A stretch of DNA of 64,000 nt from Gemmatimonadales bacterium (GCA_035575675.1 DATLXS010000098.1:2641-66640); one strand, 5' to 3'; positions 4,948 to 62,354 are shown, counted from the first letter of the stretch. Notes: generated by a model from the sequence alone, not told the origin. Translations and numbers: made by a program.

Positions 4948-4975
4948 CCGATAACCGACAACCGATAACCGAGCA
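4948..4975. repeat. heptamer array (4 units) in the adaptor/ATPase intergenic gap
   Basis: CCGATAA CCGACAA CCGATAA CCGAGCA between the stop at 4944 and the ATG at 4982. No inverted partner. Confidence 0.85.
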
Positions 4976-4981
4976 GGGTTC

Positions 4982-5680
4982 ATGGCGCTAGTCGAAATCC
5001 GCGACGTCTACAAGTCATTTCAGCGCGACACCCAAAAGATCGAGGTCTTCACGGGGCTCACCCTCGACATCGAAGCGGGCAGCTTCACCGCGCTGATGGG
5101 ACCGTCGGGGTCGGGCAAGTCGACCCTCCTCAATCTCATCGCGGGGCTCGACAAGCCGACGCGCGGCTCGGTCCGGGTCGCGGGGGCGGCGGTCAGCGAG
5201 ATGTCGGCGGGCCGGCTCGCCGCCTGGCGGTCGAGCAACATCGGGTTCGTGTTCCAGTCGTTCAACCTGCTGCCCGTGCTCACCGCGTATCAGAATGTCG
5301 AGCTCCCGCTGCTGCTCACCCGGTTGTCGGGCAGGGAACGCATCGAGCGTGTGAAGATCGCGCTCGACGTCGTGGGTCTCGCCGACCGCGCCGATCACTA
5401 TCCCCGCCAGCTGTCCGGCGGACAGGAGCAGCGCACCGCCATCGCCCGCGCCATCGTCGCGGATCCGACCGTCATGCTGCTCGATGAGCCGACGGGCCAG
5501 CTCGACGCCAAAAGCTCGCAGGAAGTGCTCGCGCTGCTGCAGCGGCTGAACAACGAGTTCAACAAGACGATCATCATCGTCACGCACGATGCGCATGCCG
5601 CCGAGCGCGCCAAGACGGTTCTGCACCTCGAGAAGGGCGACCTGATCGAGAAGCCGCGCATGGCGGCGGCCGCCCGGTGA
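4982..5680 (+). CDS. ABC transporter ATP-binding protein (MacB/LolD type)
   Basis: 232 aa. Walker A GPSGSGKST, ABC signature LSGGQEQR, Walker B MLLDEPT, H-loop VTHD. Confidence 0.95.
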   Translation: MALVEIRDVYKSFQRDTQKIEVFTGLTLDIEAGSFTALMGPSGSGKSTLLNLIAGLDKPTRGSVRVAGAAVSEMSAGRLAAWRSSNIGFVFQSFNLLPVLTAYQNVELPLLLTRLSGRERIERVKIALDVVGLADRADHYPRQLSGGQEQRTAIARAIVADPTVMLLDEPTGQLDAKSSQEVLALLQRLNNEFNKTIIIVTHDAHAAERAKTVLHLEKGDLIEKPRMAAAAR

Positions 5681-6819
5681 AGTACGTCGGGCTGGTGCTC
5701 GCCAACCTCGGCCGCCACAAGCTCCGGTCGATCCTGACGATCGCGAGCGTGGCGCTCGCGCTGTTCCTCTTCGCCTCGCTCCGCAGCGTCACCACGACGA
5801 TGGCGGCAGCGGCGCAGTTCGGCGGCGCGCGTCGCCTGGTCACGCTGAACGCGACCGGGCTGGTCTTCCCGCTGCCCCTCGCCTACGGCAACCGCATCAA
5901 GGCGCTCCCCGGGGTGACCGGTCTCTCCTGGGCCAACTGGTTCGGCGGCCGCTACGGCGACGGCAAGAGCTTTTTCGCGAATTTTGCGGTCGATGCCGAG
6001 TCCTATCTCCACCTGTATCCCGAGATCGTGATGCCGGCCGATCAGAAGCAGGCGTTCCTGCAGGATCGCACCGGCGCGATCATCGGCGAGCGTTTGATCA
6101 GTCAGTTCGGCTGGAAGCTGGGGCAGAACGTCACGCTGCAGGGAACGATTTTCCAGGGTGACTGGACCTTCAAGATCGACGGCGTCTACCACCCCACCGA
6201 TCCGGCGATCGGGGACAACGTGCTGATCTTCCATCACGACTACTTCGACGAGCGCATCGGCCGCGCGGGGATCGCCGGCTGGTACATCGTGGAGATCGAT
6301 GATCCGGCCCACGCCCCCACCATCGCCAAGGCGATCGACGACGTGTTTCGCAACTCGAGCTCGCCGACCAAGACCGGCACGGAGCGGGAGTTCCAGGCGA
6401 GCTTCGCGACGATGTGGGGCAACGTCAGCTTCCTGATGAGCACGATCGGCCTGGCCGTGGTGTTCGCGATCTTGCTGGTCACGGCGAACGCCATGATGAT
6501 GAGCGCGCGCGAGCGCACCGGCGAGATCGCCGTGCTCAAGACCGTGGGCTTCTCGGACCGGCTGCTGTTCACCCTGGTGATGGTCGAGGCGGGCGCGCTG
6601 GCGCTGACCGGCGCGGCGATCGGCCTCGGCGGCGCGACGCTCCTCTATCCGGCGATCAACTTCAACGGCGCCGGCTTCCTGCCGGGCTTCAAGGTGGCGA
6701 CGAGTACGTTGATCATCGGCGCACTGGTGGCCCTCGGCCTGATGCTGGCGAGCGGTCTCGTGCCCGCGCTGCGCGCGGCCCGCCTGCCGATCGTCCAGGC
6801 CCTGCGGAAGGTCGAATGA
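5677..6819 (+). CDS. ABC transporter permease, FtsX/MacB type
   Basis: 380 aa. N-terminal TM, large extracytoplasmic domain, three C-terminal TMs. GTGA overlap with the ATPase stop. Confidence 0.88.
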   Translation: MKYVGLVLANLGRHKLRSILTIASVALALFLFASLRSVTTTMAAAAQFGGARRLVTLNATGLVFPLPLAYGNRIKALPGVTGLSWANWFGGRYGDGKSFFANFAVDAESYLHLYPEIVMPADQKQAFLQDRTGAIIGERLISQFGWKLGQNVTLQGTIFQGDWTFKIDGVYHPTDPAIGDNVLIFHHDYFDERIGRAGIAGWYIVEIDDPAHAPTIAKAIDDVFRNSSSPTKTGTEREFQASFATMWGNVSFLMSTIGLAVVFAILLVTANAMMMSARERTGEIAVLKTVGFSDRLLFTLVMVEAGALALTGAAIGLGGATLLYPAINFNGAGFLPGFKVATSTLIIGALVALGLMLASGLVPALRAARLPIVQALRKVE

Positions 6820-9139: not shown

Positions 9140-9936
9140 ACGTCGACGCCTTCAAGTTCCTGTCGCCGCGGCTGTGGCCGGATCTCTTCGAGATCCTGGT
9201 CGTGTCGTTCGTCGTCTACCGGTTCCTGCTGTTCCTCGTCGGGACCCGCGCGCTGCAGATCGTCATCGGTCTCGTCATTCTGTCGCTGACCTACTTCGTG
9301 GCCGTGTTCGCCAAGTTCACGATGATCAGCACGCTGCTGGGCGTCGTGTTCACCTACGGCGCCTTCGCGGCCGTCGTCGTCTTCCAGCCGGAGCTGCGCA
9401 ACGCCCTGGCGCGGCTCGGCCAGTCGCGTCTCATGCGCGCGTTCTCGCGCGGCGACCGGCAGTCGGTGGCCGAAGAGATCGCGGAAGCGCTGGACCGGCT
9501 GTCGCGCGCCAGCACCGGCGCGATCATCGCGGTCGAAGGGGACATCGGCCTGGAAGAGTTCATCACCACCGGCGTGCCGATGGAAGCGAAGGTCTCGGCC
9601 GACCTCGTGACGACGATCTTCACGCCGTATTCGCCGCTGCACGACGGCGCGGTCCTGATCCGCGGCGATCAGATCATCGGCGCGGGGTGCGTGCTGCCGC
9701 TCACGCAGTTCAACGTCGCCGACAAATCGCTCGGCACGCGTCATCGCGCGGCGCTCGGGCTCTCCGAAGAGACCGATGCGACGGTGCTCGTCGTCTCGGA
9801 AGAGACCTCGACGATCTCCGTCGCGAGCCACGGCCTGCTGTATCGCCACCTCACGCCACAACAGGTACGCGATCTGCTCTCCGGCGCCGTGTCGCATCTC
9901 GAGGGCGGCGAGCGCGTGACTCAGCCTGCCACCTAA
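9136..9936 (+). CDS. cdaA: diadenylate cyclase CdaA (c-di-AMP synthase)
   Basis: Trimmed to the GTG at 9136 (GTGA overlap with the folP stop). Three N-terminal TMs, then a DAC domain with the HDGAVLI and GTRHRAA motifs. Confidence 0.9.
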   Translation: MNVDAFKFLSPRLWPDLFEILVVSFVVYRFLLFLVGTRALQIVIGLVILSLTYFVAVFAKFTMISTLLGVVFTYGAFAAVVVFQPELRNALARLGQSRLMRAFSRGDRQSVAEEIAEALDRLSRASTGAIIAVEGDIGLEEFITTGVPMEAKVSADLVTTIFTPYSPLHDGAVLIRGDQIIGAGCVLPLTQFNVADKSLGTRHRAALGLSEETDATVLVVSEETSTISVASHGLLYRHLTPQQVRDLLSGAVSHLEGGERVTQPAT

Positions 9937-9988
9937 ACCCCCCTACCGGGAGGCGGCCGCGGTCGCGCTCCTGGTCCTCATCGGATAT

Positions 9989-12228: not shown

Positions 12229-12906
12229 ATGGGTTTCGAGGCCCTGCCCGAGCGGCTGGCACAAGTACGGGCCGTGTTGGCGCAGCGTGCCGCGCAGCCC
12301 GTGACGATTGTCGCGGTGACGAAGGGATTTGGAACGGACGCGATCCGCGCGGCACTCGCCGCCGGGATCGCCGACATCGGTGAGAACCGAGTCCAGGAAG
12401 CGGTGCAGAAGCAGGACGAGTTGGGGGCTGGGGGTCAGGGACTGGGGATTCGGTGGCACCTCATTGGCCACCTCCAGCGTAACAAGGCTCGCGTCGTCGC
12501 CGGCCGGTTCGACATCGTGCACTCGATCGACTCGCTGGAGTTGGCCACCGAGCTGAATCGACGATTGCAGGCACCGCTGCGGGTGTTGCTGCAGGTGAAT
12601 GTGGCCGGCGAGTCGCAAAAGAGCGGCTGTGCACTCGAAGACGCGCCGGCGCTGGCGCGAGCGGTGGCCGCGCTCACGCCGCTCCGGTTGGAAGGCATGA
12701 TGACGATGGCACCATTGACTGACGACGAAGACATGCAGCGCCGGACCTTCCGGGGACTGCGGGTCTTGCGCGATAGGATCAAGGAGGAGGAAGGGCTATG
12801 GCTGCCGACCCTCTCGATGGGGATGTCAGGCGACTACGCTTCAGCGGTCCAAGAGGGAGCAACGGTGATCCGATTGGGTACCGTCCTGTTCGGACCGAGG
12901 ATATGA
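12229..12906 (+). CDS. yggS: YggS/YlmE family pyridoxal-phosphate homeostasis protein
   Basis: 225 aa. Motifs VAVTKGF (PLP lysine), GENRVQE, WHLIGHLQRNK and C-terminal LSMGMSGDY...IRLGT. Confidence 0.93.
   Translation: MGFEALPERLAQVRAVLAQRAAQPVTIVAVTKGFGTDAIRAALAAGIADIGENRVQEAVQKQDELGAGGQGLGIRWHLIGHLQRNKARVVAGRFDIVHSIDSLELATELNRRLQAPLRVLLQVNVAGESQKSGCALEDAPALARAVAALTPLRLEGMMTMAPLTDDEDMQRRTFRGLRVLRDRIKEEEGLWLPTLSMGMSGDYASAVQEGATVIRLGTVLFGPRI
12423..12450. repeat. G-rich heptamer array inside yggS
   Basis: GGGGGCT GGGGGTC AGGGACT GGGGATT. Also fits a G-quadruplex motif. Confidence 0.8.
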
Positions 12907-19302: not shown

Positions 19303-19822
19303 CGGAAGCCTCGTCTCCGCTCGCTTACTCGTGTTCCGCGTGGGAGCACTGGTGTGCGCCGCCGAGGTGGACCAAGTGCGGGAGATTCTCCCGCGCCTCC
19401 CAACGACGCGTATCCCGGGCGCGCCCCCGGTCGTGGCGGGGCTCGTGAATGTCCGCGGCACTCTGGTGACGGTCGTGGAAGGGTGGCGTGCGCTGGGCCA
19501 GGCACCGCCGGGTCCGCCCGCATCCCCCCCCGCCGAGACGTCCCAGACTCAAGCACCTGAGGCCGCGGGCTCGACGATCATCCTCGAGATGGGCAAGGGT
19601 GAGTCAGGGGCTGGGGCGACCGGAGCGCACGAGGGACAGCTGATCGGGTTTACGGTGGATGAGGTGATGGACATGCTCGCGGGTGGTGCGACGACGCTGG
19701 AGGACCGCACCGGTCTTCCGGGGGTCGATCCCACGCTGGTGCGGGCGGTCGGGCGGCGGAATGGTGAACTGTTCATCGTGTTGGACGTCGCGGCGCTGTT
19801 GGGCCCGATTCTGACTACTTAA
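19295..19822 (+). CDS. cheW: CheW-like coupling protein with Pro/Gly-rich insertion
   Basis: Trimmed to the ATG at 19295. Contains LLVFRVGALVCAAEVDQVREILP...IPGAPPVVAGLVNVRGTLVTVV and a C-terminal FTVDEV...LFIVLDV. Carries an internal low-complexity segment with a C8 run and a G-rich array. Confidence 0.8.
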   Translation: MTDGSLVSARLLVFRVGALVCAAEVDQVREILPRLPTTRIPGAPPVVAGLVNVRGTLVTVVEGWRALGQAPPGPPASPPAETSQTQAPEAAGSTIILEMGKGESGAGATGAHEGQLIGFTVDEVMDMLAGGATTLEDRTGLPGVDPTLVRAVGRRNGELFIVLDVAALLGPILTT

Positions 19823-26611: not shown

Positions 26612-27428
26612 CGAGATCCGCGCGCTCTCGGCGCAGCTCGCCCAGGATCCGCAGAGCCTCGTGTTCTTGCGGCTGGGCGAAGCCTTGCGCCGCAAGGGAC
26701 AGCTCGACTCCGCCACCCGAGTCGCGATGAACGGGCTCGAGCGGCATCCGCATCTCGCCGACGCGCACGACCTGTTCGCGCGGATCCTGACCGACAAGCA
26801 CGACTACGCGCGCGCGTTCGACGAGTGGGACATGGCCGTCCGGATCGCGCCCAACCATACCGGCGCCCTGAAGGGGCTCGCCTTCCTCTACTTCAAGGTC
26901 GGCGATATCGCCCAGGCCGAAACCCATCTCGAGCAGGCGCGCAAGGTCGAGCCGGACGATCCGACCATCGATCAGGCGTTTGAGATGATCCGCGGCGGGG
27001 CACATGCGCCGCCCTCCGCCGCCCCCTCGCCGCCCCCCGCCGCCCCAGCGCCGCCAGCGGGTGCGCTCGATGAAGCGCGCGTTTTCGCGGGATTAGAGGG
27101 CGCCAACGAAGGCCTCCTGCTCATCGACGGCGCGGGACGCGTCCTGGGTGGGTCGATCCGCGATGGATCGGGCTCGGATGTCACCGACAGCGTTGCCGCC
27201 TATCTTGCCGGCGTCTCGCAGGAGGCGGCGCGGACCGCGAAGCTGCTGGGGCTGGGAGCCTGGAACGGTTTGTCGGCGGAAGGGCAACACGGCAACGTGC
27301 ACCTGGCGCATCCGACGCCTGAAGCGCTGCTCCTCGTCGTCCGCGAGCGCGGGACGCCGCTCGGCCGCCTCGCGATTCTCGCGCAGCGGGCGACGTCGCT
27401 GGCGCGCCGCTGGCTGGAGCAGCAATGA
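26604..27428 (+). CDS. TPR - Pro/Ala linker - Roadblock/LC7 fusion protein
   Basis: Listed ORF 26121.. trimmed to the ATG at 26604. TPR N-terminus (LVFLRLGEALRRKGQLDSA...), then a Pro/Ala-rich linker. The C-terminal ~110 aa has a Roadblock-like pattern (GLLLIDGAGRVLGGS...ALLLVVRERGTPLGRL). Confidence 0.65.
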   Translation: MADEIRALSAQLAQDPQSLVFLRLGEALRRKGQLDSATRVAMNGLERHPHLADAHDLFARILTDKHDYARAFDEWDMAVRIAPNHTGALKGLAFLYFKVGDIAQAETHLEQARKVEPDDPTIDQAFEMIRGGAHAPPSAAPSPPPAAPAPPAGALDEARVFAGLEGANEGLLLIDGAGRVLGGSIRDGSGSDVTDSVAAYLAGVSQEAARTAKLLGLGAWNGLSAEGQHGNVHLAHPTPEALLLVVRERGTPLGRLAILAQRATSLARRWLEQQ

Positions 27429-28250: not shown

Positions 28251-28853
28251 GTGTCCCTGGTCAACTTCACGACCCGCGAGATCACGTGCAAAATCGTCTA
28301 CTACGGACCTGGGCGGTCCGGAAAGACGACCAATCTCCATTACATCTACGGCCGCGTGCCGGAAACTCGGCGCGGGCGCATGGTGTCGCTCGCCACGCAG
28401 ACCGACCGCACGCTGTTCTTCGACTTCCTGCCGATCGATCTGGGCCAGATCTCCGGATTCTCGACGCGGTTTCAGCTCTACACCGTTCCGGGCCAGGTCT
28501 ATTACAACGCCACCCGGCGGCTGGTGCTGCAGGGCGCGGACGGCGTGGTCTTCGTCGGGGACAGTCAAGCCCGGCAGCTCGATGAGAATGTCGAAAGCCT
28601 GCAGAACCTCCAGAGCAATCTGCTCGAGCACGGCATCGATGTGCGCACCATGCCGCTGGTGATGCAATACAACAAGCAGGACCTGCCCGCCGAGCTGATC
28701 CTGAGGCAGGAGGACCTCGACGACGCGCTCAACTTCCGGAGCGTGCCGAGCTTCGCAGCCGACGCGCTGCACGGCAGAGGGGTGTTCGAGACCCTCAAGT
28801 CGATCTCGGAGCTCGTGCTCAAGAAGCTCGCGGCGGGAACCCCCGCGACATGA
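28251..28853 (+). CDS. mglA: Ras-like polarity GTPase MglA
   Basis: 200 aa, collinear with M. xanthus Mgl[18 protein letters not shown]-loop, intrinsic Arg in [12 protein letters not shown], MglA-specific YTVPGQ (Thr in place of the G3 Asp), NKQDLP. Confidence 0.93.
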
Positions 28854-30802
28854 CCAGCACGCTCAATCCCCGCTTCACGTTCGACACGTTCGTGGTCGGC
28901 GCCGCGAACCGCCTCGCCGTCACCGCCGGGCGCACCGTCGCGGAGAATCCGGGCTCGGCCTACAACCCGCTCTTCATCTATAGTGGCTCGGGGTTGGGCA
29001 AGACGCACGTGCTGATGGCCATCGGGCACGCCGCCAAGGTCATCGCGTCGCAGTTGAACATCGAGTACCTGACGTTGGACGAGTACGTTGAGGCGCTCCA
29101 CGCCGCGATCGCGGCGGGGCAGGGCGACGCCTTCCGGCGCCGGTTCCAGAACGTCGATGTCTTGCTCGTCGACGACGTGCAGTTCCTCACCAATCGCAAG
29201 GAGATGCAGACCGAGTTGCTCCGCCTGACCGAGGCGCTGCAGCAGGGCGGTCATCAGATCGTGCTCGCGAGCGATCGCCCCCCGGCCGAGATCGCGGACC
29301 TGGACGAGCGTCTCATCTCGCGCTTTTCCGGCGGGCTCGTCGTCGATATGGGCATCCCCGACTACGAAACGCGCGTCGCCATTCTGCGCCGCAAGGCCGA
29401 GGAGCGCGGGACGAAGTTCCAGCCGGGGATCCTCGAGACGGTCGCGAAAGTCGAGTATCCGAACGTCCGCGAGTTGATGGGCGCGCTCAATCGTCTGATC
29501 GCCTTCCAGGCGGTGAACGACACGCCGATAAACGCGGATGCGGCGAGCAAGGTGTTGGGCATCCCTACCGCCGCTTCACCGACCGCCGCCTCATCTACCG
29601 CCGCTTCACATACCGCCGCCTCACCCGATGAATTCAGCCAGTTCCTGACCGACGTCACCGTGACCGTGGGCAAGGCCGTCGAGGCGTGGCGCGCGCGCGT
29701 GACCGAGGCGGTGATGCGCTGGGAGGGAGAAGGCTACCGGACGGGCCGGCTCGAAAAGCTCCTCGATCAGGAGACGCCGGCCGCGGTGGACGAAGTGATC
29801 GCGTCGTACGTGCGCGACGTGGAACGGCTCAAGGCGCTCGAGGCGGAAGTGGCGGTGCTCGATCCCCAGGCCGCGGGTGAGAAAGTCTTCCGCGATCCCG
29901 AGCACATGGACGCGGCCGAGGCCGCCGCCGCGAAGGTTCGCGACGGCGCGGCGCCGCCGCCGGCCCCGTCAGGCGCATTTCCGCTCGACGCGTACGTCGC
30001 CGGGCCGTCCAACGAGGTGGCATTGAACGCCGCGCGCGACTGCGTCGCGAAGCCCGGGAAGAAATACAATCCCCTCGTGATCGTCGGCCGCAGCGGGCTC
30101 GGCAAGACGCACCTGCTCAACGCCATCGGGCTCGAGCTCGCGAAAAAGAAGAACGCGGTGGTCGCCTGCCTGTCGACCCAGCAGTTCGTCGACGAGCTGA
30201 TTGCGGCCATCGACGGCAACCGGGTGGACTGGTGGCGCGCGCGCTATCGGCGTGCGACCGCGCTGCTGCTCGACGACATCCATCTGCTCGCCGGCAAGGA
30301 GCGCACGCAGGAAGAGCTGTTCAACCTTTTCAATCAACTGGTCGACGCCGACCGGCAGCTCATCTTCACGGCGCCCGCGCACCCGAACACGCTCGAGGGG
30401 CTCGAGGAGCGCATCGTGTCGCGGCTCGAAGGCGGGCTCGTGACGGAGATCGCGGAGCCGGACAAGGAGCTGCGCCGGAGCATGCTCGAGCGCCTGCTCA
30501 CGCACCAGCACGTGGCGCTCGAGCCGGCGCTGCTCGACTACCTGGCGGACCGGCCCATCGATTCCGTCCGCAACCTGACCGGCGTGGTCCAGCGCGTGGT
30601 CGAGGCCGCCGCGGCGCAGGACGCGCCCGTGACGGCGGGTCTGGCGCGCGATGTGCTGGAGGGAGCGCCTCCGCCGCGCCGCACCGCGGGACTGCGCACC
30701 AGCGGCATCGTCGTGTCGAGCGCCGGCGGCGTGCGCAGCCGGGAGAAGATGGTCTGGGACTGGCCCGCCGCTGCTGATCGCGTCATCGAGGATCTGCGCT
30801 GA
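28850..30802 (+). CDS. tandem DnaA-type AAA+ protein (two DnaA domain-III modules; no domain I or IV)
   Basis: 650 aa. Module 1 (res 6-222): [54 protein letters not shown]. Module 2 (res 377-590): [44 protein letters not shown] saw no DnaA C-terminal HTH signature. ATGA overlap with the mglA stop. Confidence 0.85.
29567..29626. repeat. 15-nt x4 in-frame tandem repeat (TAAS-x pentapeptide)
   Basis: ACCGCCGCTTCACCG ACCGCCGCCTCATCT ACCGCCGCTTCACAT ACCGCCGCCTCACCC encodes [20 protein letters not shown] in the linker of the double-DnaA protein. Confidence 0.9.
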
Positions 30803-39598: not shown

Positions 39599-39672
39599 GG
39601 GGCTGTAGCTCAGCTGGTTAGAGTGCCGGTCTGTCACACCGGAGGTCGCGGGTTCGAGCCCCGTCAGCCCCG
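39599..39672 (+). tRNA. tRNA-Asp (anticodon GTC)
   Basis: 74 nt cloverleaf folded by hand. Acceptor GGGGCTG/CAGCCCC, anticodon stem CCGGT/ACCGG with loop CTGTCAC, T-loop TTCGAGC. Confidence 0.92.
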
Positions 39673-39692
39673 CCTCAAGGTTCCGATTGCAA

Positions 39693-39728
39693 ACCCCCGC
39701 CCCTTTGTGGCGGGGGTTTTCTTATTTT
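39693..39728 (+). terminator. intrinsic terminator after tRNA-Asp
   Basis: 9-bp GC-rich stem ACCCCCGCC/GGCGGGGGT with a 7-nt loop, followed by TTTTCTTATTTT. Confidence 0.8.
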
Positions 39729-39733
39729 GGAGC

Positions 39734-40693
39734 GTGCCCACGGCCGCCTCAGGCTCCTCAATTCACTACCACACCCCGGTCCTTGCCGCGGCGGTGAGAG
39801 AGTGGGCTCGCGGCGGCGCCCGCGCCGTCGACGCAACACTCGGCGGCGGCGGCCACGCCGCCATTTTGCGCGAGGCGGGCGCTCGTATCTTGGGAATCGA
39901 TCGCGACGCGGATGCAGTTGCCGCCTCTCGCCGCCGCCTTGGCACCGTCGATATCGAATACCTCGAGTCTTCGTTCGCCGCCCCTTCGGCCTTTGCCGCC
40001 ATTCGCGCCTTCCGCCCCGACCGCATTCTCCTCGACCTCGGCGTCAGCTCGCACCAACTCGACACGCCGGAGCGCGGCTTCACCTTCCGGCCCGGCACGC
40101 CGCTCGATATGCGGATGCGGGGCAAGGGGATGGGGGAAGGGGGAAAAGGAATAACCGCGCGAGATGTCCTGAACACGTGGCCGGTGGAGCGGCTGGGCGC
40201 GGTGTTTACGGACTACGCTGACGAACGACGCGGCCGTGCGCTGGCGAGAGAGATCATCCGGCGCCGCCTCACTGCCGCCTTTGTGATCAGCGACGATTTC
40301 GTGAACGCGATTCGGGCGGTCTTGGGGCCGCGCTCGGGGCCGCCCGATTTCGCGCGCCTGTTTCAGGCGCTTCGCATCGCCGTGAATGAGGAGCTCGATG
40401 CGCTGACCACGGCGTTGCCGGCACTGCGCGATGCGCTCGTCCCGGCGGGCCGCCTGGGAGTGATTACGTACCACTCCGGGGAAGACCGCATCGTGAAGCA
40501 CGCGTTTCGGGAGTGGGGCCGGGAGTGCATCTGTCCGCCCCGCCAGCCGGTGTGCACGTGCCGCGGCCGGGCGCTGGGCCTGGTGCTGACCAAGAAGCCG
40601 ATCGCGCCCCCATCCGACGAAATCGCGTCCAATCCCCGCGCGCGATCGGCCCGGTTCCGGGCCTTCGAAACTGCGGCGGCAGATGAAGTTTAG
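39734..40693 (+). CDS. rsmH: 16S rRNA (cytosine1402-N4)-methyltransferase RsmH (MraW)
   Basis: Listed ORF 39623.. trimmed to the GTG at 39734, because the upstream part covers the tRNA and terminator. Motifs HTPVL, DATLGGGGH, GVSSHQLD, PLDMRM, ITYHSGEDRIVK. Confidence 0.88.
   Translation: MPTAASGSSIHYHTPVLAAAVREWARGGARAVDATLGGGGHAAILREAGARILGIDRDADAVAASRRRLGTVDIEYLESSFAAPSAFAAIRAFRPDRILLDLGVSSHQLDTPERGFTFRPGTPLDMRMRGKGMGEGGKGITARDVLNTWPVERLGAVFTDYADERRGRALAREIIRRRLTAAFVISDDFVNAIRAVLGPRSGPPDFARLFQALRIAVNEELDALTTALPALRDALVPAGRLGVITYHSGEDRIVKHAFREWGRECICPPRQPVCTCRGRALGLVLTKKPIAPPSDEIASNPRARSARFRAFETAAADEV
40119..40146. repeat. G-rich heptamer array inside rsmH
   Basis: GGGGCAA GGGGATG GGGGAAG GGGGAAA encodes the GKGMGEGGKG loop after the LDMRM motif. 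Confidence 0.85.
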
Positions 40694-44388: not shown

Positions 44389-45765
44389 ATGGGCGGACGG
44401 ACGGACGGTCCGACGGTCGGACGGTCGTGGACCAGCGACGAAGTCGCGGCCGCGCTCGGCGTGCCCTCGCCCGCCAAGCTCCGGTTTTCCGCCATCTCCA
44501 CGGACACCAGACACCTGACACCAGGCACCCTTTTTGTCGCTCTCAAAGGCGACACGTTCGACGCGCACAACTTCCTCGACCAAGCCAGGGCGGGGGGAGC
44601 AACGGCCGCCGTTGTGCGTCGCGGCACGCCCACGGTGGACGGGCTGGCTTTCTTTGAAGTGGACGACACGCTTGTCGCGCTCGGGCTGCTCGCGCGCGCG
44701 CGGCGCCGCATGTTCCCCGACGGGACCCCGGTCGTGGCGATCACCGGATCGAGCGGCAAGACGAGCACCAAGGAGATGATTCGCGCGGCGTTGGGCGCCC
44801 GCTACCGCGTCCATGCGACCGCGGCCAATCTCAACAATCTGATCGGCGTTCCATTGACGATCCTCAGTGCTCCGGAAAACACCGAAGCGCTGGTCGTCGA
44901 GGCGGGGGCGAGCGTGCCGGGCGAGATCGCCCGGCTGCGCGACATCATCGAGCCGACGATCGCCGTGATCACGAACGTCGGCTACGCCCACGTCGAGGGC
45001 TTCGGGTCGCTCGAAGGCGTGATGGCCGAGAAGCTGTCGTTGCTCGATCGCGTGCCCGTGGCCGTGCTTGGCTCCGGGCCCGAAGCGATGTGGCCCGAAG
45101 CGCGCCGCCGGACGCAGGTGATCCCGGCCGCGCTGCATGGCAAGAGCGTCGACGACAGCCTGCTCGACCGCTACCTCGATAAAGACGGGCATCCCCACCT
45201 GTCGCTCGATTCCGGGGAAAAGGTCACCCTGCCGGCGCTTGGCATCCATCAGCTCGAGAATGCCCAGATCGCGCTGGCCGTGGCGCAGCGTGCCGGGGTG
45301 GATCACGACGCCGCGGTGCGGGCGCTCGCCGGGCTCCAGCTGCCGGAGGGGCGGGGTAACGTGCGGGAGATCGGCGACATGGTGGTGATCGACGACACCT
45401 ACAACGCCAACCCCGCCTCGATGCGCCGGGCGGTGCAGACGGCGGACTGGCTGGCACGGCGGCAGCGCCGGCCGCTGGTGGTGGTCGTGGGCACGATGTT
45501 GGAGTTAGGGCCGGAAAGTGCAAGATTGCACGCCGCAGCGGCGCGCGAAATCGCCCAGCGCAAGCCGGCGCTCGTGGCGGCGGTGGGCACGTTTGCGCGG
45601 GTGTTCGAGGGGCAGCGGGAGGCGCTCGGTGGCCGGCTCATTACCGCCGCCGACGCCGACGCGCTCGGCCCGAAGTTGAAATCGGCGTTGCGTGGGAACG
45701 AGCTCGTGTTGCTCAAAGCGTCACGGGGAGTCGCCTTGGAACGTGTCCTCAACTACCTGACCTGA
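44389..45765 (+). CDS. murF: UDP-N-acetylmuramoyl-tripeptide--D-alanyl-D-alanine ligase
   Basis: 458 aa. Motifs ISTDTR, ITGSSGKTSTKEM, DTYNANP. The first 13 codons are encoded by a short-period repeat. Confidence 0.92.
   Translation: MGGRTDGPTVGRSWTSDEVAAALGVPSPAKLRFSAISTDTRHLTPGTLFVALKGDTFDAHNFLDQARAGGATAAVVRRGTPTVDGLAFFEVDDTLVALGLLARARRRMFPDGTPVVAITGSSGKTSTKEMIRAALGARYRVHATAANLNNLIGVPLTILSAPENTEALVVEAGASVPGEIARLRDIIEPTIAVITNVGYAHVEGFGSLEGVMAEKLSLLDRVPVAVLGSGPEAMWPEARRRTQVIPAALHGKSVDDSLLDRYLDKDGHPHLSLDSGEKVTLPALGIHQLENAQIALAVAQRAGVDHDAAVRALAGLQLPEGRGNVREIGDMVVIDDTYNANPASMRRAVQTADWLARRQRRPLVVVVGTMLELGPESARLHAAAAREIAQRKPALVAAVGTFARVFEGQREALGGRLITAADADALGPKLKSALRGNELVLLKASRGVALERVLNYLT
44392..44428. 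repeat. short-period [A/T]CGG array at the murF 5' end
   Basis: GGCGGACGGACGGACGGTCCGACGGTCGGACGGTCGT, with 4-nt period and three 8-nt units GACGGTCC GACGGTCG GACGGTCG. A related array GCCGGACG GCCGGTCG GCCGGACG GTCC lies at 19-46 in tilS. Confidence 0.8.
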
Positions 45766-49363: not shown

Positions 49364-49440
49364 GAACGCGGAACGCGGAACTCGGAAGTCGGAACAGTGT
49401 CTTTGATGTTCGTTCCACGTTCGGCGTTCCGCGTTCCGCG
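49364..49440. repeat. inverted heptamer-array hairpin between ftsW and murG
   Basis: Left arm GAACGCG GAACGCG GAACTCG GAAGTCG GAAC. Right arm GTTC GTTCCAC GTTCGGC GTTCCGC GTTCCGC G. The outer 15 bp pair perfectly. Flanked by CGTGAAGA at 49358-49365 and 49443-49450. Confidence 0.9.
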
Positions 49441-56437: not shown

Positions 56438-57142
56438 GTGGAGCTCTACCCCGCCGTCGACATAGAAGGCGGGCGCGTCGCACGCGCCCACGGCGAGCTG
56501 GCGCACCCGCTCGCGGCGCTCGACACGTTCATCCGCGCCGGCGCCAAATGGATTCACCTGGTCGACATGGACCGCGCGTTCGGGCGGGGGCGCAAGGACA
56601 ACCATGAGCTCATCGGCGCGGTGCTGAGCGCGGCCGCGACGCGCGTCCAGGTGCAGGTCGGCGGCGGGCTGTTTCGGGAAACCGACATCGATCAGATGTT
56701 CAACCTGGGCGCGACCCGCGTCGTCATCGGCCCGCGCGGCGCGGTGGACTCGGGGTTGGTCGAGCGGCTCGTCACACGCTACGGCGCGCGCCGCCTCGCC
56801 GCGGGCATCGACGCGAGGGACGGCCGGGTCGCCCCGCGCGGCACGGCGGACATTCTCGATCTGACGGCGGAAGCGCTCGCGACGCGCGTCGCGACACTCG
56901 GGATCCGGACGATCATCTACAACGAGGTGACGCGCGACGGTAAGCTGACAGGCCCAGACACGGACGGAGCGAAGACGCTCGCCGCCCTCGGCGGGGGTCT
57001 CGACGTCATCGTCTCGGGTGGCGTTGGGTCGCTCGACGACCTGCGCGCCGCGCGGGCGGCGGGACTCGCCGGCATCTGTGTCGGTCGCGCGCTGTACGAC
57101 GGCAAGTTCACGATTGCGGAGGCGCTCGCGTGCCTCTCGTAA
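56438..57142 (+). CDS. hisA: HisA/PriA-like (beta/alpha)8 ProFAR-isomerase family protein
   Basis: 234 aa. LYPAVDIEGGRVAR N-terminus, VQVGGG, C-terminal IVSGGVGSLDDL...GICVGRALYDG. No other his genes in the window. Confidence 0.7.
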   Translation: MELYPAVDIEGGRVARAHGELAHPLAALDTFIRAGAKWIHLVDMDRAFGRGRKDNHELIGAVLSAAATRVQVQVGGGLFRETDIDQMFNLGATRVVIGPRGAVDSGLVERLVTRYGARRLAAGIDARDGRVAPRGTADILDLTAEALATRVATLGIRTIIYNEVTRDGKLTGPDTDGAKTLAALGGGLDVIVSGGVGSLDDLRAARAAGLAGICVGRALYDGKFTIAEALACLS

Positions 57143-58875
57143 CGCTGCGAATCATCGCCGTGCTGGCGCTGATCCTCCTGCTGTGGAATCCTGCCAGCTC
57201 GCGGCTGCTTCCCGCGGGCGATCAACCGATCGTGCTGCTCGACGGCTCGCTCAGCATGTCGGGATCGCCGTGGCACGCGGCGCTCGACAGCGCGCGGCGC
57301 TACGCGCGCGGGCGGGCGGTCGTCTGGCGCTTCGGTACCGGCGTCGCGTCGTTCGACACCACGGCGCCGACCGCGGGTGCGAGCCACCTCGGTCCGGCGC
57401 TCGAGGCCGCCGCGGGGCGGGCCGGTGAAGTCGTGGTCGTCACGGATGGAAATGTCGATGACCTGGCCGGCATTCCGCCCGATCTGCTGCGCCGGCCGCG
57501 CGTGATTCTCGCGCCGCGACCTGCATTCTTCGATGCGTACGTTGCGGCCGTCGCAGGGCCGAGGCATGTGACGCGAAGCGATACCATCCGGCTCAGGGTG
57601 AGCTACGGGACGGCGGGGACGAGGGACGGGGGAAGGGGGACGGGTAAGGCGACGCTAACGGTGTCGGTTGAAGGCCACCGGCTTGCGTCCGTCCCGGTAA
57701 TTCTGCCCGACAGTGGAGTCCTAAATACGGAGGTCACCCTTCCCGCGTCCCACGTCCCCCGTCCCGGTTGGATCGCACTCGACGTCCACCTTGATGGTGT
57801 GAACGACACGGAGTCTCGAGACGACACTCGCGCGTTCGTGATCGACGTGAGCCTCGAGCCCGCCGCGGTCCTGTTCGCGTCGCCGCCCGACTGGGACGCG
57901 CGGTTCCTCGCCCGCACCATGGCCGACGTCGCGCGTGTACCGGTCAAGGTGTTCGTCGAGACGGAAGCGGGCCGCTGGCGTGACGGCGCCACGCTGGCGC
58001 CGGTTGCGACGGCCGATCTAACGCGTGCGGCGGCGAACGCCCGCCTCGTGATCGCGACGGGTGAGCCGGGGCGGGCGCGGGCGTTTACCACCGATTCCCG
58101 CAGCGCGTTGCTGCTGTGGCCAACCACCGGGCAAACGGGCGATTGGTACGTGGAGCGGCCGGTGTCCTCACCCTTCACGGCCGCGCTTGCGGGCGTGGCG
58201 TGGGATTCACTTCCGCCTGCGACCGCCGTCACGATGCAAGTGCGCGACTCTGGGTCCGCCGCGACCGTCGCGCTGGCGGCGCGACTGGCGCGTCGCGGGG
58301 CGGCGCGCCCGATCGTGATCCTCGAGCAGCACGGCAGTCAGCGCGTCGCGACGGTCACCGCCGCCGGATTGTGGCGCTGGGCCTTCCGCGGCGGGGCCGC
58401 CGAGGAAGCCTATCGGAATGTGGTGGCGGCGATGGTGGACTGGCTATTGGGAGACGAGGGACGGGGGACGAGGGAGCGGGTCGTTCCGCAGATGTATGAA
58501 GTCCCGAATGGCATGCCCACGGTGTGGCGCTGGGCGGCCGCTGATTCTGCGCGGTCAATGGCGATCACATTGCGCACTCGCGACACGACGCGCCTCGACA
58601 CGCTGCGGTTCGATGCGGCGGGCCGCGCCGAGCTGCTCCTGCCACCCGGCGTCTATCGCTACGCCTTGAGTGGCGGCACGGAGCAGGGCGTCATCGCGGT
58701 CGAGACGTACTCCGATGAATGGTTGCCGCGTGCGCCGGCGCTCAGCGCTCAGCCGGGCGAGGCGACGGAGCGCTCGAGCACGGTGGGCCTGCGCGACCGC
58801 TGGTGGCTGTTCGCGATCGCGCTCGCGGCCCTCGCCACGGAATGGGCGCTGCGACGCCGCCAGGGCCTGCCGTAA
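57130..58875 (+). CDS. membrane protein with vWA-like N-terminal region, unknown function
   Basis: 581 aa. N-terminal TM (LRIIAVLALILLLW), IVLLDGSLSM (MIDAS-like) and a C-terminal TM (WWLFAIALAALATEWAL). Contains three heptamer arrays. Confidence 0.65.
   Translation: MPLVTLRIIAVLALILLLWNPASSRLLPAGDQPIVLLDGSLSMSGSPWHAALDSARRYARGRAVVWRFGTGVASFDTTAPTAGASHLGPALEAAAGRAGEVVVVTDGNVDDLAGIPPDLLRRPRVILAPRPAFFDAYVAAVAGPRHVTRSDTIRLRVSYGTAGTRDGGRGTGKATLTVSVEGHRLASVPVILPDSGVLNTEVTLPASHVPRPGWIALDVHLDGVNDTESRDDTRAFVIDVSLEPAAVLFASPPDWDARFLARTMADVARVPVKVFVETEAGRWRDGATLAPVATADLTRAAANARLVIATGEPGRARAFTTDSRSALLLWPTTGQTGDWYVERPVSSPFTAALAGVAWDSLPPATAVTMQVRDSGSAATVALAARLARRGAARPIVILEQHGSQRVATVTAAGLWRWAFRGGAAEEAYRNVVAAMVDWLLGDEGRGTRERVVPQMYEVPNGMPTVWRWAAADSARSMAITLRTRDTTRLDTLRFDAAGRAELLLPPGVYRYALSGGTEQGVIAVETYSDEWLPRAPALSAQPGEATERSSTVGLRDRWWLFAIALAALATEWALRRRQGLP
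57607..57648. repeat. heptamer array (6 units), GGGGGAC type
   Basis: GGGACGG CGGGGAC GAGGGAC GGGGGAA GGGGGAC GGGTAAG inside CDS 57130..58875. Confidence 0.85.
57733..57767. repeat. heptamer array (5 units), GTCCCCC type (reverse complement of 57607..57648)
   Basis: GTCACCC TTCCCGC GTCCCAC GTCCCCC GTCCCGG, 84 nt downstream of the G-rich array in the same ORF. Confidence 0.85.
58449..58476. repeat. heptamer array (4 units), GGGGGAC type
   Basis: GGGAGAC GAGGGAC GGGGGAC GAGGGAG in the same ORF as the 57.6 kb arrays. Confidence 0.85.
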
Positions 58876-59720: not shown

Positions 59721-61786
59721 ACCTCCAGCTCAATTCACCCGTCAAATTCCTCAAAGGCGTGGGCCCCAAGCGCGCCGAAGCCCTCCAACGGTTGGGCATT
59801 CGCACCGCGGGCGATCTGCTCTATCACACGCCGCATCGCTATCTCGACGCCACTACCGTCACGCGCCTAGCCCAGGCCGCGATCAATCAAGAGGTGACGT
59901 GCGTGGGTCGAGTCGTCAGCACCGGTGTGTTGCCGACCCGCCGGGGCCTGCGCGTATTCAGGGCCGTCCTGAAGGACAGCAGCGGCTTACTCGAGTGCGC
60001 CTGGCCGGGCCGGCCGTTTCTCGAGCGACAGATCAAGAAGGGCCAGCTGTTGCTGGTGACCGGGCCGGTGCGCTACTACCACGGCAAGCAGATCGTGCCG
60101 CACGAGTTTCTCGTGCTCGCCGAGCCGGATGAGGGCGAAGGGACGGGGGACCCGGGACTCGTACTGCCCGTGTATCCGGCCACGGAAGGGCTGACACACC
60201 GGCAGATCCGGGCGCTGGTCCAGCAACATCTGGATGCGCTACTACCGCTCGTGAGCGATCCGCATCCGCCCGCGTTCCGGGCGACGCACAACCTGATCGA
60301 GCTGCGGCGCGCGCTCGAGCTGATGCATCGCCCCAAGCAGGTCGAGGAAGCCGAGCTGGGGCGGCGCCGTCTCGCGTTCGACGAGCTGTTCGAGCAACAA
60401 CTGGTCCAGGCGCGGGCGCGCCATTTGGCCAAGCGGGCACGGGCCGGCATTCGGTTCACGCTGAAGCGGGAGCTGACCACCCGGCTGAAGGAGCACCTGC
60501 CGTTCGAGCTGACGGCCGATCAACGCCACGCGGTTCGGGAAATCACGGACGACATGACGGCGCCCCTGCGGATGCACCGGTTGCTCATGGGCGACGTCGG
60601 GACCGGAAAGACGGTCGTCGCGCTGTTTGCGATGCTGCTGGCGGCCGAGAACGACTATCAGGCGGCGATCATGGCGCCGACCGAGCTGCTTGCCGAGCAA
60701 CATGGTGCCACGCTGACTTCGCTGCTCGAGCCGCTGGGGATCCGGCCGGAGCTGCTGTTGGGCCGGATGACCGCGGCGGAGAAGGCGGCGGTTCGCGAGC
60801 GGCTCGCGGGCGGCGGAGCACGGATTGTCGTCGGCACGCACGCGCTGATTCAGGAGTCGGTCACGTTCCGCCGCCTGGGGCTCGCCGTCATCGACGAGCA
60901 GCACCGCTTTGGCGTCGAGCAGCGCGCCGCCCTCGTCGAGAAGGGTGATGCTCCAGACGTCTTACTGCTGACCGCCACCCCGATTCCCCGATCCCTCGCC
61001 CTCACCCTGTATGGCGACCTCGACGTCACCCAGATCCGCGAGCGTCCGCCTGGGCGCGGCGCGGTCAAGACGGCGCTCCGCACCGACGATGCCCGGTCCA
61101 AGATCTACGATTTTATTCGCAGCGAGTGCGCCGCGGGACGCCAGGTGTATGTGATCTATCCCGTGATCGACGAATCGGAGCGCGCCGATCTCAAGGCCGC
61201 GACGACGATGGCCGCGAAGCTGGCGAAGACGTTCGCCGAGTTTCGCGTGGGCCTGGTGCACGGCAAAATGAAGGCGGATGAGCGCGACGTCACGATGCGC
61301 GCGTTTCGTGACAACGCAGTCAACATCCTCGTCGCTACGAGCGTCATCGAAGTGGGGATCGACGTCGCGAACGCGACGGTGATGCTGATCGAGCATGCCG
61401 AGCGATTCGGGCTGGCGCAGCTGCACCAGCTGCGGGGCCGGGTGGGGCGGGGGGTGGCGGCGAGCCACTGCATCCTGCTGTCGGATTCACCGCAGGCGGC
61501 GCCGCGGCTCCAGGCGTTCTGCGAAACGACGGACGGCTTCAAGATCGCGGAGCTGGATTTGCACGAACGCGGGATGGGCGAGCTGGCCGGCGCCCGGCAA
61601 TCGGGCGGCGTGCCGCTGCGCTACGCCAATCTCGAGACCGACCTGCCGCTGCTCGACGCCGCGCGCACCGCCGCGGCCGCGATGATCGGCACCGATCCCG
61701 CCCTCGAGCAACGCGAGCACGCGGTTTATCGCGAGCGGATCGTTACGCGGTACGAGCGGGGGTTTGAATTATTTCGGGTGGGCTGA
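59717..61786 (+). CDS. recG: ATP-dependent DNA helicase RecG
   Basis: 689 aa. Wedge-domain N-terminus (KGVGPKRAEAL), GDVGTGKT, DEQHRFG, TATPIPRS, QLHQLRGRVGRG. TTGA overlap with the ftsY stop. Confidence 0.95.
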   Translation: MNLQLNSPVKFLKGVGPKRAEALQRLGIRTAGDLLYHTPHRYLDATTVTRLAQAAINQEVTCVGRVVSTGVLPTRRGLRVFRAVLKDSSGLLECAWPGRPFLERQIKKGQLLLVTGPVRYYHGKQIVPHEFLVLAEPDEGEGTGDPGLVLPVYPATEGLTHRQIRALVQQHLDALLPLVSDPHPPAFRATHNLIELRRALELMHRPKQVEEAELGRRRLAFDELFEQQLVQARARHLAKRARAGIRFTLKRELTTRLKEHLPFELTADQRHAVREITDDMTAPLRMHRLLMGDVGTGKTVVALFAMLLAAENDYQAAIMAPTELLAEQHGATLTSLLEPLGIRPELLLGRMTAAEKAAVRERLAGGGARIVVGTHALIQESVTFRRLGLAVIDEQHRFGVEQRAALVEKGDAPDVLLLTATPIPRSLALTLYGDLDVTQIRERPPGRGAVKTALRTDDARSKIYDFIRSECAAGRQVYVIYPVIDESERADLKAATTMAAKLAKTFAEFRVGLVHGKMKADERDVTMRAFRDNAVNILVATSVIEVGIDVANATVMLIEHAERFGLAQLHQLRGRVGRGVAASHCILLSDSPQAAPRLQAFCETTDGFKIAELDLHERGMGELAGARQSGGVPLRYANLETDLPLLDAARTAAAAMIGTDPALEQREHAVYRERIVTRYERGFELFRVG

Positions 61787-61790
61787 GAAT

Positions 61791-61854
61791 GGTGTCAGGT
61801 GTCTGGTGTCTGGTGTCAGATGTTTCTGACACCAGGAACCTGACACCCGACACC
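61791..61854. repeat. inverted heptamer-array hairpin in the convergent gap
   Basis: GGTGTCA GGTGTCT GGTGTCT GGTGTCAG, loop ATGTTT, CTGACAC CAGGAAC CTGACAC CCGACACC. Fills the 67-nt gap between the recG stop and the stop of the minus-strand gene. No U-tract. Confidence 0.9.
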
Positions 61855-62354
61855 TAGAACGGGACCCGCACCCCAACCTGCATCGGAGCAAAGGGAATAT
61901 TCCCCGGCCCTTCCCCCGGATGCAGATCAATAATGAAGAGAGCAGTCGTCGCCAGGAGGCTCGCCTGCGCGCCGAGCAGCCAGCGATTGGCTCGCCGGTC
62001 GTACGCGCGCGAGCGCTGATAGAGCTGCTCCGCGTCGCTGCGGATGTAGCGGCCGTCAGTACCCAGCGCGCAGGCGTCCTGCGCCGACCGGCAGACGTCG
62101 AGCAGGGCATTCCACTCGCGCCGTGAGTTGGTGTGCTGCTTCTCCGCGAAGACTATCAAGGCCCCCACACTCGCCGCAGTGAGCCATTTTCCGGTGTGCA
62201 CGACGGCGCGTTGGAACGATGCACGTTGGTCATCGGTCGTCAGTCGTCGGTTCTCAGTACCGATGACCGATGACCGATGACCGATCGCCTGGCTACGTAG
62301 CGAGGGCGCGAGGCCGCAACACAGCATCGCAACGAGAATCGTCGAGCGTCTCAT
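61854..62354 (-). CDS. secreted/membrane protein of unknown function
   Basis: Listed ORF trimmed to the Met at 62354 (MRRSTILVAMLCCGLAPSLRSQA signal peptide), which makes an ATGA overlap with the upstream BamB-like stop. A heptamer hairpin is translated in frame after the signal peptide. Confidence 0.6.
   Translation of the reverse strand: MRRSTILVAMLCCGLAPSLRSQAIGHRSSVIGTENRRLTTDDQRASFQRAVVHTGKWLTAASVGALIVFAEKQHTNSRREWNALLDVCRSAQDACALGTDGRYIRSDAEQLYQRSRAYDRRANRWLLGAQASLLATTALFIIDLHPGEGPGNIPFAPMQVGVRVPF
62227..62284. repeat. inverted heptamer-array hairpin inside a CDS
   Basis: GGTCATC GGTCGTC AGTCGTC GGT, loop TCTCAGT, ACC GATGACC GATGACC GATGACC GAT. About 24 bp pair, with the mismatches being G-U compatible. 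Confidence 0.9.

Follow-up and report, generated by a model that had tools for sequence, protein, structure and literature searches.

The stretch of DNA analysed here, hereafter the window, comprises 64,000 nucleotides (C98:2641-66640) of a 3.5-Mb metagenome-assembled genome (MAG) of a soil bacterium, placed in the Gemmatimonadales by the relatives of its RecG, which comprises 261 contigs and is 81% complete. Dispersed over it, at gene junctions and inside open reading frames (ORFs), are micro-arrays, each made of a few tandem copies of a short and slightly degenerate unit, and each standing either alone or opposite an inverted second array with which it can pair. A preliminary description of the window had listed 13 such stretches with a period of 7 nt and had suggested either a genome-specific class of structured elements or the footprint of a repeat-generating mechanism. 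All 13 read as given there, most are called independently by Tandem Repeats Finder (TRF), and 12 are genuine arrays; these are set out below, paired arms sharing a line, together with two arrays in murF, of which the one at 44503-44529 had been overlooked. Genes were called with a home-made codon-usage caller, the start codons of which are rough and the stops reliable.

4948-4975, plus strand: solo heptamer array, CCGATAA x3.6, called by TRF, with identity at lag 7 in 17/21 positions.
12423-12450, plus strand: solo G-rich heptamer array of the GGGGGCT type, placed in frame within a variable loop of a YggS/PLPBP-like gene (12229-12906).
40119-40146, plus strand: solo array of G-rich heptamers, GGGGNNN, lying in frame within RsmH/MraW (Pfam Methyltransf_5), just past the conserved LDMRM motif.
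44394-44427, plus strand: octamer array, CGGACGGT x4.2, directly past the murE stop/murF ATG (TGAATG) and read as an N-terminal extension of MurF.
44503-44529, plus strand: heptamer array, GACACCW x3.9, coding for the conserved MurF motif DTRHLTPGT with the rare codons AGA, ACA and CCA.
49364-49440, plus strand: hairpin of GAACGCG x4.6, a 12-15-nt loop and CGCGTTC x4.3; fold -45.4 kcal/mol, z -3.9.
57607-57767, plus strand: inverted pair in an ORF of 581 amino acids (aa), with a G-rich arm at 57607-57648 (GGGGGAC type), an 84-nt coding loop and a C-rich arm at 57733-57767.
58449-58476, plus strand: solo G-rich heptamer array in the same ORF, coding for GDEGRGTRE, with no partner within 400 nt.
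61791-61854, plus strand: hairpin of GGTGTCW x4.7, ATGTTT and a GACACC-type arm; fold -50.2 kcal/mol, z -6.9.
62227-62284, minus strand: hairpin of the GGTCRTC/ACCGATG family, in frame in a small secreted-protein gene (61854-62354); fold -40.3 kcal/mol, z -5.6.

Several of these elements lie between genes. The CCGATAA array occupies the 37 nt that separate an HlyD-family gene, with its TAA stop at 4942-4944, from an ABC ATPase gene, whose ATG is at 4982. It starts 3 nt past the TAA and has no inverted partner within 400 nt and no fold (z +0.8), and its unit is found at 3 loci in the genome against 0 for the reversed control. The GAACGCG hairpin, which begins at the ftsW stop, lies between that stop and the murG start and has a direct repeat, CGTGAAGA, at its flanks. 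The GGTGTCW hairpin takes up the whole interval from the recG stop (61784-61786) to the stop codon with which a small converging gene ends (61854-61856), beginning 4 nt past the former and abutting the latter at 61854; in a relative whose RecG is 79% identical, just 21 nt stand at this recG 3' end, as against the 67-nt hairpin region here.

Identity at a lag of seven positions is strong (0.77-0.95, with counts of 17/21 to 22/25) at 4948, 49364, 49408, 61791 and 62258 and moderate (0.63-0.76) at 40119, 57607, 57733 and 58449, while at 12423, 61826 and 62227 it is weak taken alone (0.62-0.76), these three being backed by a complementary arm or by orthologs. The remaining stretch, 19591-19618, is not periodic, its lag-7 identity of 8/21 being that of chance, with a higher value at lag 6 and no TRF call. 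When arrays are counted over the whole genome, requiring a minimum of 14 matching positions and allowing one mismatch, 89 of period 7 stand against a mean of 1.0 in a shuffle control in which codons were permuted inside genes and bases between them, and it was this enrichment over codon-preserving shuffles that had been set beforehand as the test. The same control returns means of 0.6 against 76 arrays of period 8 and 0.8 against 32 of period 10, and periods 5, 11 and 13 yield 4-6 arrays each against 0.4-2; periods 9, 11 and 15 are also present in the genome. The period of seven is therefore real but is not the sole one, and since 8 and 10 are equally enriched it is not special. A chance origin is ruled out by the codon-preserving shuffles together with reversed-unit controls, which give about 0 matches.

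The preliminary description also held that the unit differs from locus to locus, an impression that arises because the window is small. Seen genome-wide, the units resolve into about two dozen recurring families of 5-50 copies each, and most units of the window belong to them. The proposal of a real, non-random class with a recurring architecture is supported. Heptamer arrays number 217, with only 8 singletons, and fall into about 12 families, including GGTGTCW (35 arrays), GAACGCG (28), GTGCGTG (18), CTGCTCC (13) and, with 14 arrays each, GATCAAT, GGGGCTC, ACCGATG and GGGGACG. Beside them are octamers, among which CGGACGGT is the biggest family with 52 arrays and GGCGGATG has 21, and decamers, headed by GGGCGGCGAA with 26. 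The median copy number is 3.9, and arms become longer with longer units, measuring 29, 30, 38 and 55 nt at periods of 7, 8, 10 and 15 respectively, so that, with about four copies at every period, the conserved quantity is the number of units and not the length. An array edge lies within 10 nt of a stop codon in 22% of arrays as opposed to 3.5% of random positions, and an array within 10 nt of a start codon in 11% as opposed to 3%.

In its complete form a family is a cassette that carries a gene of the Pfam family PF05635, and the hairpins and solo arms without a gene stand at gene junctions and in tolerant protein loops. The product of this gene, an Avd-like four-helix bundle also named 23S rRNA intervening-sequence protein, is listed in some database entries as "bAvd family". 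PF05635 genes number 13 in the genome, all of them outside the window, and 12 of these stand between inverted arrays whose unit is particular to the gene and has a period of 7, 8, 9, 10, 11 or 15. The cassette on contig C211 has the unit of the window hairpin at 61791-61854 (GGTGTCW) and that on C205 the unit of the hairpin at 49364-49440 (GAACGCG); because the cassette arms share units with the window, the window loci are to be seen as gene-less hairpins or solo arms of cassette families. In this assembly, at 81% completeness, 41% of heptamer arrays have a unit in common with a PF05635 cassette.

Inverted pairs number 86 genome-wide, and the sizes of their loops are bimodal, with hairpins at 0-72 nt and cassettes at 345-466 nt. 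An inverted second array, which the preliminary description had seen often, is real in the window for 49364/49408, 57607/57733, 61791/61826 and 62227/62258 and not for the other arrays, which have no inverted partner within 400 nt. Of 63 short hairpins, 57 have the G-rich arm on the 5' side, as do 13 of the 14 pairs whose loops measure 150-500 nt (mostly cassettes), and as an inverted repeat is identical on both strands, this polarity is a genuine property of the element. Telomerase-like or retroelement synthesis would fit such a polarity; no reverse transcriptase (PF00078) was found in the genome, which at 81% completeness leaves that idea unsupported rather than excluded.

The bond between gene and unit extends beyond this genome. 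Comparisons within the genus were based on incomplete MAGs, here given by handles beginning with G. In five other genomes of the genus, orthologs of the C211 protein with 71-81% identity lie between GGTGTCW arrays some 477 nt apart, those at 62-64% identity have a diverged dimeric unit, GGTGYCW, and related arms bracket proteins 59-62% identical to it in an Acidobacteriia MAG and in a second MAG. The cassette of the former (L243:1413-1937, JAIQEZ010000017.1) has AGGTGYC/ACCTGAC arms and a 61% identical protein. By unit-pattern counts, which include overlapping matches, a genome of the genus holds 0 to 41 GGTGTCW arrays, and these are commoner where there is an ortholog of the C211 protein of at least 70% identity (mean 19.8 vs 5.8; Mann-Whitney p=8e-4, Spearman 0.47), in association tests of unit with gene or genome that ignore the kinship of the genomes. 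With the same families recurring throughout the genus as well as in further Gemmatimonadales and in Acidobacteriota, the label "genome-specific" has to be given up.

Several observations on the cassettes may be recorded here. The L243 cassette separates yidD from yidC in the rpmH-rnpA-yidD-yidC operon, an arrangement that is universal otherwise, and is a clean insertion in another phylum. At C211:17775-18253 the PF05635 ORF extends into its own 3' arm, so that it is the GACACC array that encodes the C-terminal tail, RYQTPGTRHQACQ. Metagenome contigs of just ~900-1000 nt carry many of the cassette protein's close homologues, as would be expected if the flanking arrays interrupt assembly at either end of the cassette. 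Among solved structures, the nearest homologue of the GGTGTCW-cassette protein is XCC0516 of Xanthomonas campestris (PDB 2GSC, E 5e-26), an uncharacterised protein with five chains in the entry, and X. campestris is the species in which GGGAATC heptamers were described (PMC4692102). Full-text searches of the literature returned no paper that ties PF05635/TIGR02436 genes to tandem-repeat arrays.

The inverted pair in the 581-aa membrane-protein ORF (57130-58875), which is conserved in 23 of 25 genomes of the genus, allows the arrays to be followed between species. Both arms are kept without any change of length in all 16 aligned orthologs, and in every case the downstream arm complements the upstream one, whether the unit is GGGAAAC, GGGAAGC, GGGATGC, GGGGGAC or GGGGCTC. 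Cells are paired across the arms in 80.1% of cases as compared with 32-54% when the partner is slid by 1-3 columns, those changed on both sides number 38 as compared with 8-16 in the slid controls, 11 pairs show a compensatory change, and none of 500 shuffles reached the observed percentage paired or the covariation score. The variation falls at positions 5-6 of the unit, every seven columns, from which it follows that change is concerted along the array and across the arms. The peptide changes along with the unit (GKRERGNGKRE vs GMRDARNGMR, for example). In ORF arrays more generally, as in that of the YggS-like gene, a change extends to several units regardless of codon phase, in keeping with the earlier view that arrays inside ORFs are repeats of DNA and not of amino acids. 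The solo array at 58449 has GERGAGSRER as the ortholog consensus, which by back-translation we infer to be the translation of (GGGGAGC)n.

Such covariation, seen in 16 species, is also what functional RNA hairpins would leave, namely 3'-end stabilisers, RNase III sites or devices of translational coupling under selection for mRNA structure, which was the leading idea of the preliminary description and which we regard as rather unlikely. The folds are certainly strong, at -40 to -99 kcal/mol (z -3.7 to -6.9) for the four window hairpins, the pair at 57607-57767 giving -99 kcal/mol (z -3.7), and arrays are enriched six-fold within 10 nt of stops. Solo arrays, however, show no fold (z>=0), the notion of structured elements being supported for the paired ones. 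G.U mismatches slightly outnumber A.C mismatches (36 vs 23), and sense-strand stability shows a small surplus over antisense (28 vs 18), but neither asymmetry is significant (p=0.12 and p=0.13). No T-run or U-tract follows the four hairpins, the single hit of the scan being an artefact internal to an array, and at the Rfam 15 gathering score only two tRNAs match in the window, with no match to an array or hairpin; as one hairpin moreover lies in the essential dcw operon (ftsW-murG), and three arrays or pairs lie inside ORFs, the elements are not intrinsic terminators, one of the functions first suggested for them. Structure selection alone would leave the tandem units, the families, the non-folding solo arrays, the 5' G-rich polarity on both strands and the PF05635 link unexplained.

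What determines the unit at the 581-aa site is of particular interest. On a tree of the 581-aa protein with the array columns removed, the five unit types require 10 changes against 7-11 with shuffled labels, and the unit type is thus without phylogenetic signal. The unit at the site follows instead the family that is abundant in the genome concerned. Counts of three tandem GGGATGC units reach 65 in G005, 51 in G003 and 25 in G010, exactly the three genomes that use GGGATGC in the 581-aa ORF, as against 0 in the present genome, 0-8 in most and 14-23 in G004, G007, G018 and G013, and G003 holds a PF05635 gene (E 1e-23) between GGGATGC arms. For GGGAAAC the counts are 17-41 in four of the five genomes with this unit in the 581-aa ORF, 5 in G016, and 0-7 in the others. 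With the matches of the site itself subtracted, the two tests of unit against genome give p=0.007 and p=0.010. GGGGGAC, the unit at the site in the present genome, is the commonest there of the G-rich heptamers counted. Concerted turnover of this kind between species agrees with the alternative offered in the preliminary description, that of a footprint of a repeat-generating mechanism.

The G-rich arrays could also be regulatory G-quadruplex motifs, as has been proposed for the GGGAATC repeats of Xanthomonas, which form G-quadruplexes in vitro (PMC4692102). The arrays at 12423, 40119, 57607 and 58449 do fit the pattern (G3+N1-7)x4. Yet the G-rich arm at 57607 pairs and covaries with a complementary C-rich arm, and the largest families (GGTGTCW, GAACGCG, GATCATT, CGGACGGT and ACCGATG) are devoid of G-tracts; as G-tracts occur in some families only, the G-quadruplex is not a general explanation, and we hold this account to be very improbable.

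Presence/absence polymorphism at orthologous loci, which had been put forward as a check, is found within the genus, where sites are occupied, empty or filled with a different unit. At the ftsW/murG junction, among 18 genomes, three are empty, with a bare GTGA stop/start overlap, two have a short insert without an array and 13 are occupied, 12 by hairpins and one (G007) by a single arm, with at least five different units: GCGGAAC here, and GCGGATT, GCGAAAT, GCGGCGT, GGTGCGT and GTGCGGA. Occupied and empty sites, together with multi-copy families, would suit miniature non-autonomous transposons, similar to transposable elements of the miniature inverted-repeat kind (MITEs), repetitive extragenic palindromic (REP) sequences or Rickettsia palindromic elements (RPEs), that are moved by a transposase encoded elsewhere with PF05635 as a mere passenger. 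Insertion in frame into ORFs, as RPEs do, the cassette dropped into the conserved rnpA-yidD-yidC operon and the 8-bp direct repeat CGTGAAGA around the ftsW/murG hairpin all speak for it. That repeat is the sole exception at the flanks, and it may simply be required to preserve both the ftsW stop and the murG start; genome-wide there are no general target-site duplications, the longest flank match averaging 3.57 against 3.57 in controls. Further against transposition, the sites within ORFs hold their length while the unit changes, solo arms without a partner are common, and occupation of the ftsW/murG site in 13 of 18 genomes by different units is far above the average occupancy. This explanation we judge unlikely.

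The arrays inside other genes show the same combination of occupied, empty and exchanged sites. In the YggS/PLPBP-like gene (Pfam Ala_racemase_N) the array codes for LGAGGQGLGI; among 22 orthologs of the genus about 10 have the 28-nt array in place of 19 nt and the rest lack it, and a change of GGGGG to GGGAG appears in three units together, synonymous in one and non-synonymous in two. Five of 20 RsmH orthologs are without about 21 nt (three units), and the others have arrays of differing units (GGGGGAA, GGGAGCC, GGGAGCR and GGGGACG). At the N-terminus of MurF, in 20 genomes of the genus, the octamer array is present in 14 and is down to one unit in six, and in G023 and G009 a GGGGCTC heptamer array of equal length takes its place. 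The second murF array, over the stretch D-T-R-x-L-x-P-G, is heptamer-periodic in all 20 orthologs, with GACACCW, GATACCC, GATAGCC or GANCCCC as the unit, and the two murF arrays are complementary in G023 and G009 (23-24 of 28 positions) and not in this genome. The hairpin in the small secreted-protein gene is translated as IGHRSSVIGTENRRLTTDDQ just past the signal peptide. At this site G014 and G017 have no element, G023 and G001 carry the one seen here, and G021, G006 and G012 have a different, octamer element, GCACGTCG.

The short murE/murF alleles retain one CGGACGG unit, a possible local seed for ordinary simple sequence repeats arising by replication slippage, whose inverted arms would come from template switching with no factor acting in trans. 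Heptamer repeats of that sort are over-represented in many bacteria, according to work cited in PMC4692102, and neither target-site duplications nor an enzyme of mobility were found, reverse transcriptase being the only enzyme searched for. Local slippage nevertheless fails to account for a small set of families that number as many as 52 copies, spread over unrelated loci, and for reversed-unit controls of about 0, for a unit tied to a specific PF05635 gene across phyla, for a site unit that follows the abundant family of the genome, or for the G-rich arm lying 5' in 57 of 63 hairpins, and it appears distinctly improbable. Slippage, classical transposition, selection for RNA structure and the G-quadruplex each account for some of the data but not for the remainder.

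Five further arrays lie within or beside genes of the window:

17-43, plus strand: octamer array, CGGCCGGA x3.4, in or at the 5' part of tilS, called by TRF.
3861-3897, plus strand: decamer array, GGCGGCGAGG x3.6, lying in the linker that follows the membrane anchor in an HlyD-family gene.
27007-27055, plus strand: decamer array, CGCCGCCCCC x4.7, in the linker between TPR and Roadblock domains.
29564-29625, plus strand: 15-nt array x4.1, coding for a (TAASx)4 linker between two DnaA-type ATPase domains.
36804-36833, plus strand: octamer array, CCGTCCGG x3.8, inside a Peptidase_MA_2-like gene, called by TRF.

The array at 3861-3897 belongs to the GGGCGGCGAA family and has its unit in common with a PF05635 cassette on C40. 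The protein encoded at 28850-30802, of 650 aa, has two DnaA-type ATPase domains joined by the (TAASx)4 linker. The tRNA genes of the window lie at 39599-39672 and 37627-37700, and as the former overlaps the rsmH ORF call (39623-40693), the true rsmH start is further downstream, the Pfam match running from residue 50. The gene at 61854-62354 (115/166 aa) was considered as a divergent PF05635 member; it has no Pfam match and is a secreted protein conserved in the genus (25 of 25 genomes). Its start overlaps the stop of a BamB-like gene (62351-63976, minus strand) as ATGA at 62351-62354, which suggests translational coupling. In another Gemmatimonadales MAG, L055, at least nine heptamer or octamer arrays are present in 10 kb around recG (2744-2939, 3884-3995, 6064-6221 and 9157-9292), with array pairs flanking recG and immediately past the stop of the 581-aa ORF's ortholog, which seems split over two frames; the 10-kb recG locus of Archangium, of similar G+C, has 0 period-7 arrays.

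Taken as a whole, the micro-arrays are best read, with a probability that we would put at roughly 55%, as members of genome-wide families of short units, with periods of 7, 8, 9, 10, 11 and 15 nt, that are handled by a system, tied to PF05635, which copies or converts the arrays of each family specifically. The complete cassette is an element of about 0.5 kb in which the PF05635 gene lies between two inverted arrays of about four gene-specific units each, the G-rich arm 5', and the gene-less forms of the window are two-arm hairpins with a loop of 6-15 nt (in one case the 84-nt coding loop) and solo arms, which persist wherever they are tolerated, against stops, at junctions and in frame in variable protein loops. 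An agent acting in trans and specific to the family would keep copying or converting the arrays to its own unit, a possible route being ectopic conversion or templated rewriting, with arm-to-arm correction in a folded single strand. The likeliest candidate for the reader of the unit is the PF05635 protein itself, at perhaps one unit per subunit of an oligomer, on account of the link between gene and unit across phyla, the approximately four units per arm at any period and the five chains of 2GSC. That PF05635 proteins are unit-specific readers or part of the writer, and that scattered arrays, those in essential genes included, are rewritten to the unit of the active paralogues, is put forward tentatively, as a possibility that is less probable than the broader reading.

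A number of points weigh against a PF05635-tied copying or conversion system. In this assembly 59% of heptamer arrays belong to families without a cassette, and among the families of the window GGGGGAC, GGTCRTC and CGGACGGT are without one. The genomes G046 and G050 have 35 and 16 GGTGTCW arrays without a close ortholog of the cassette protein, and G022 uses GGGAAAC in the 581-aa ORF and has 0 other copies. The associations are uncorrected for phylogeny and come from incomplete MAGs, the gene calls are those of a home-made codon-usage caller, and the tree of the 581-aa protein is weakly resolved, with 7 of 13 forks open. Finally, no enzyme that would copy or insert the arrays was identified, transposases beyond reverse transcriptase not having been searched for.

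The preliminary description knew of no element family with a conserved architecture and a variable unit; dispersed tandem heptamers have in fact been on record in Xanthomonas, Nostoc and other cyanobacteria, and Beggiatoaceae. The GGGAATC heptamers of Xanthomonas and the GGGGAYT heptamers of Nostoc/Anabaena, described by Rehm et al. 2015 (PMC4692102), mostly have four units, are mostly intergenic and nearer the upstream ORF, include 70-75 convergent pairs, and vary in length and sequence at conserved sites between close species, with their function unexplained; a link to PF05635, present here, is not mentioned for them (PMC4692102). The arrays of this genome resemble them in being over-represented tandem heptamers of about four units, in lying near the 3' ends of upstream ORFs, and in forming inverted pairs whose 5' G-rich arm corresponds to the "convergent orientation". 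They differ in that, where Xanthomonas and Nostoc have one dominant unit with a G-tract per genome, about 12 heptamer families plus octamers and decamers occur here, the largest of them without G-tracts, and in that arrays also stand in frame in conserved ORFs with covarying arms. Short tandemly repeated repetitive (STRR) heptamers were reportedly described in cyanobacteria by Mazel et al. in 1990. TAACTGA repeats are known in Beggiatoaceae, Microcystis and Bacteroidetes, and nearly all sets are direct repeats upstream of start codons, with 1 of 170 inverted (PMC4679880). Both share with the present arrays the dispersed tandem heptamers of 2-6 copies beside genes, several unit types per genome, and a patchy taxonomic spread that suggests horizontal transfer, and the lack of a described mechanism, whereas a hairpin architecture, covariation within ORFs and an associated gene family, all present here, are not described for them. 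What is added to the earlier reports of heptamers is thus the many families per genome, the covarying arms within ORFs, the turnover that follows the repertoire of the genome and the link to a cassette.

Likeness to other systems is partial. Intervening sequences (IVSs) of 23S rRNA that carry an S23p/PF05635 ORF are known in Leptospira and Coxiella, where they lie in rRNA helices and are excised by RNase III. They too have the PF05635 gene in the loop of a long inverted stem, as do 12 of the 13 genes here, and they too are sporadic at fixed sites, with different sequences at one site across lineages; unlike them, the present elements lie between and inside protein genes and have stems made of short-unit tandem arrays. 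RPEs, REP sequences with the bacterial interspersed mosaic elements (BIMEs) they form, and MITEs have a fixed consensus of 35-150 nt (100-150 nt for RPEs), and REP/BIME are extragenic and have an associated REP-associated tyrosine transposase (RAYT). All are multi-copy palindromes at gene ends, as are the arrays, and RPEs are likewise found in frame in genes and translated. Here, by contrast, it is the architecture of about four tandem units, inverted, that is conserved, the sequence being set by the unit family and the units turned over in place; unlike in MITEs, the inverted arms come with no general target-site duplication, and unlike the strictly extragenic REP/BIME, several arrays stand in frame in ORFs. 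Diversity-generating retroelements (DGRs) overwrite their target without a change of length and have a hairpin beside it, and PF05635 proteins are homologues of their Avd protein. Here, unlike in DGRs, there is no reverse transcriptase (in a genome 81% complete), no pair of template and variable repeats and no adenine-specific change.

At a practical level, the arrays break metagenome assemblies, make false ORF extensions and alter the sequences of conserved enzymes. More broadly, the dispersed heptamer repeats of cyanobacteria, Xanthomonas, Beggiatoaceae and other bacteria have remained unexplained for some 35 years, and the present genus offers handles on them, with many families per genome, 12 families each tied to a small gene, arrays in essential genes, arms that covary between species, and a unit at a site that tracks the repertoire of the genome rather than phylogeny. 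The hypothesis of a family-specific reader or conversion system linked to Avd-like proteins is thereby made testable. If PF05635 proteins are indeed readers of the unit or part of its writer, this would amount to an unrecognised, horizontally mobile system of sequence rewriting, and it would also explain the heptamers of Xanthomonas and the cyanobacteria.

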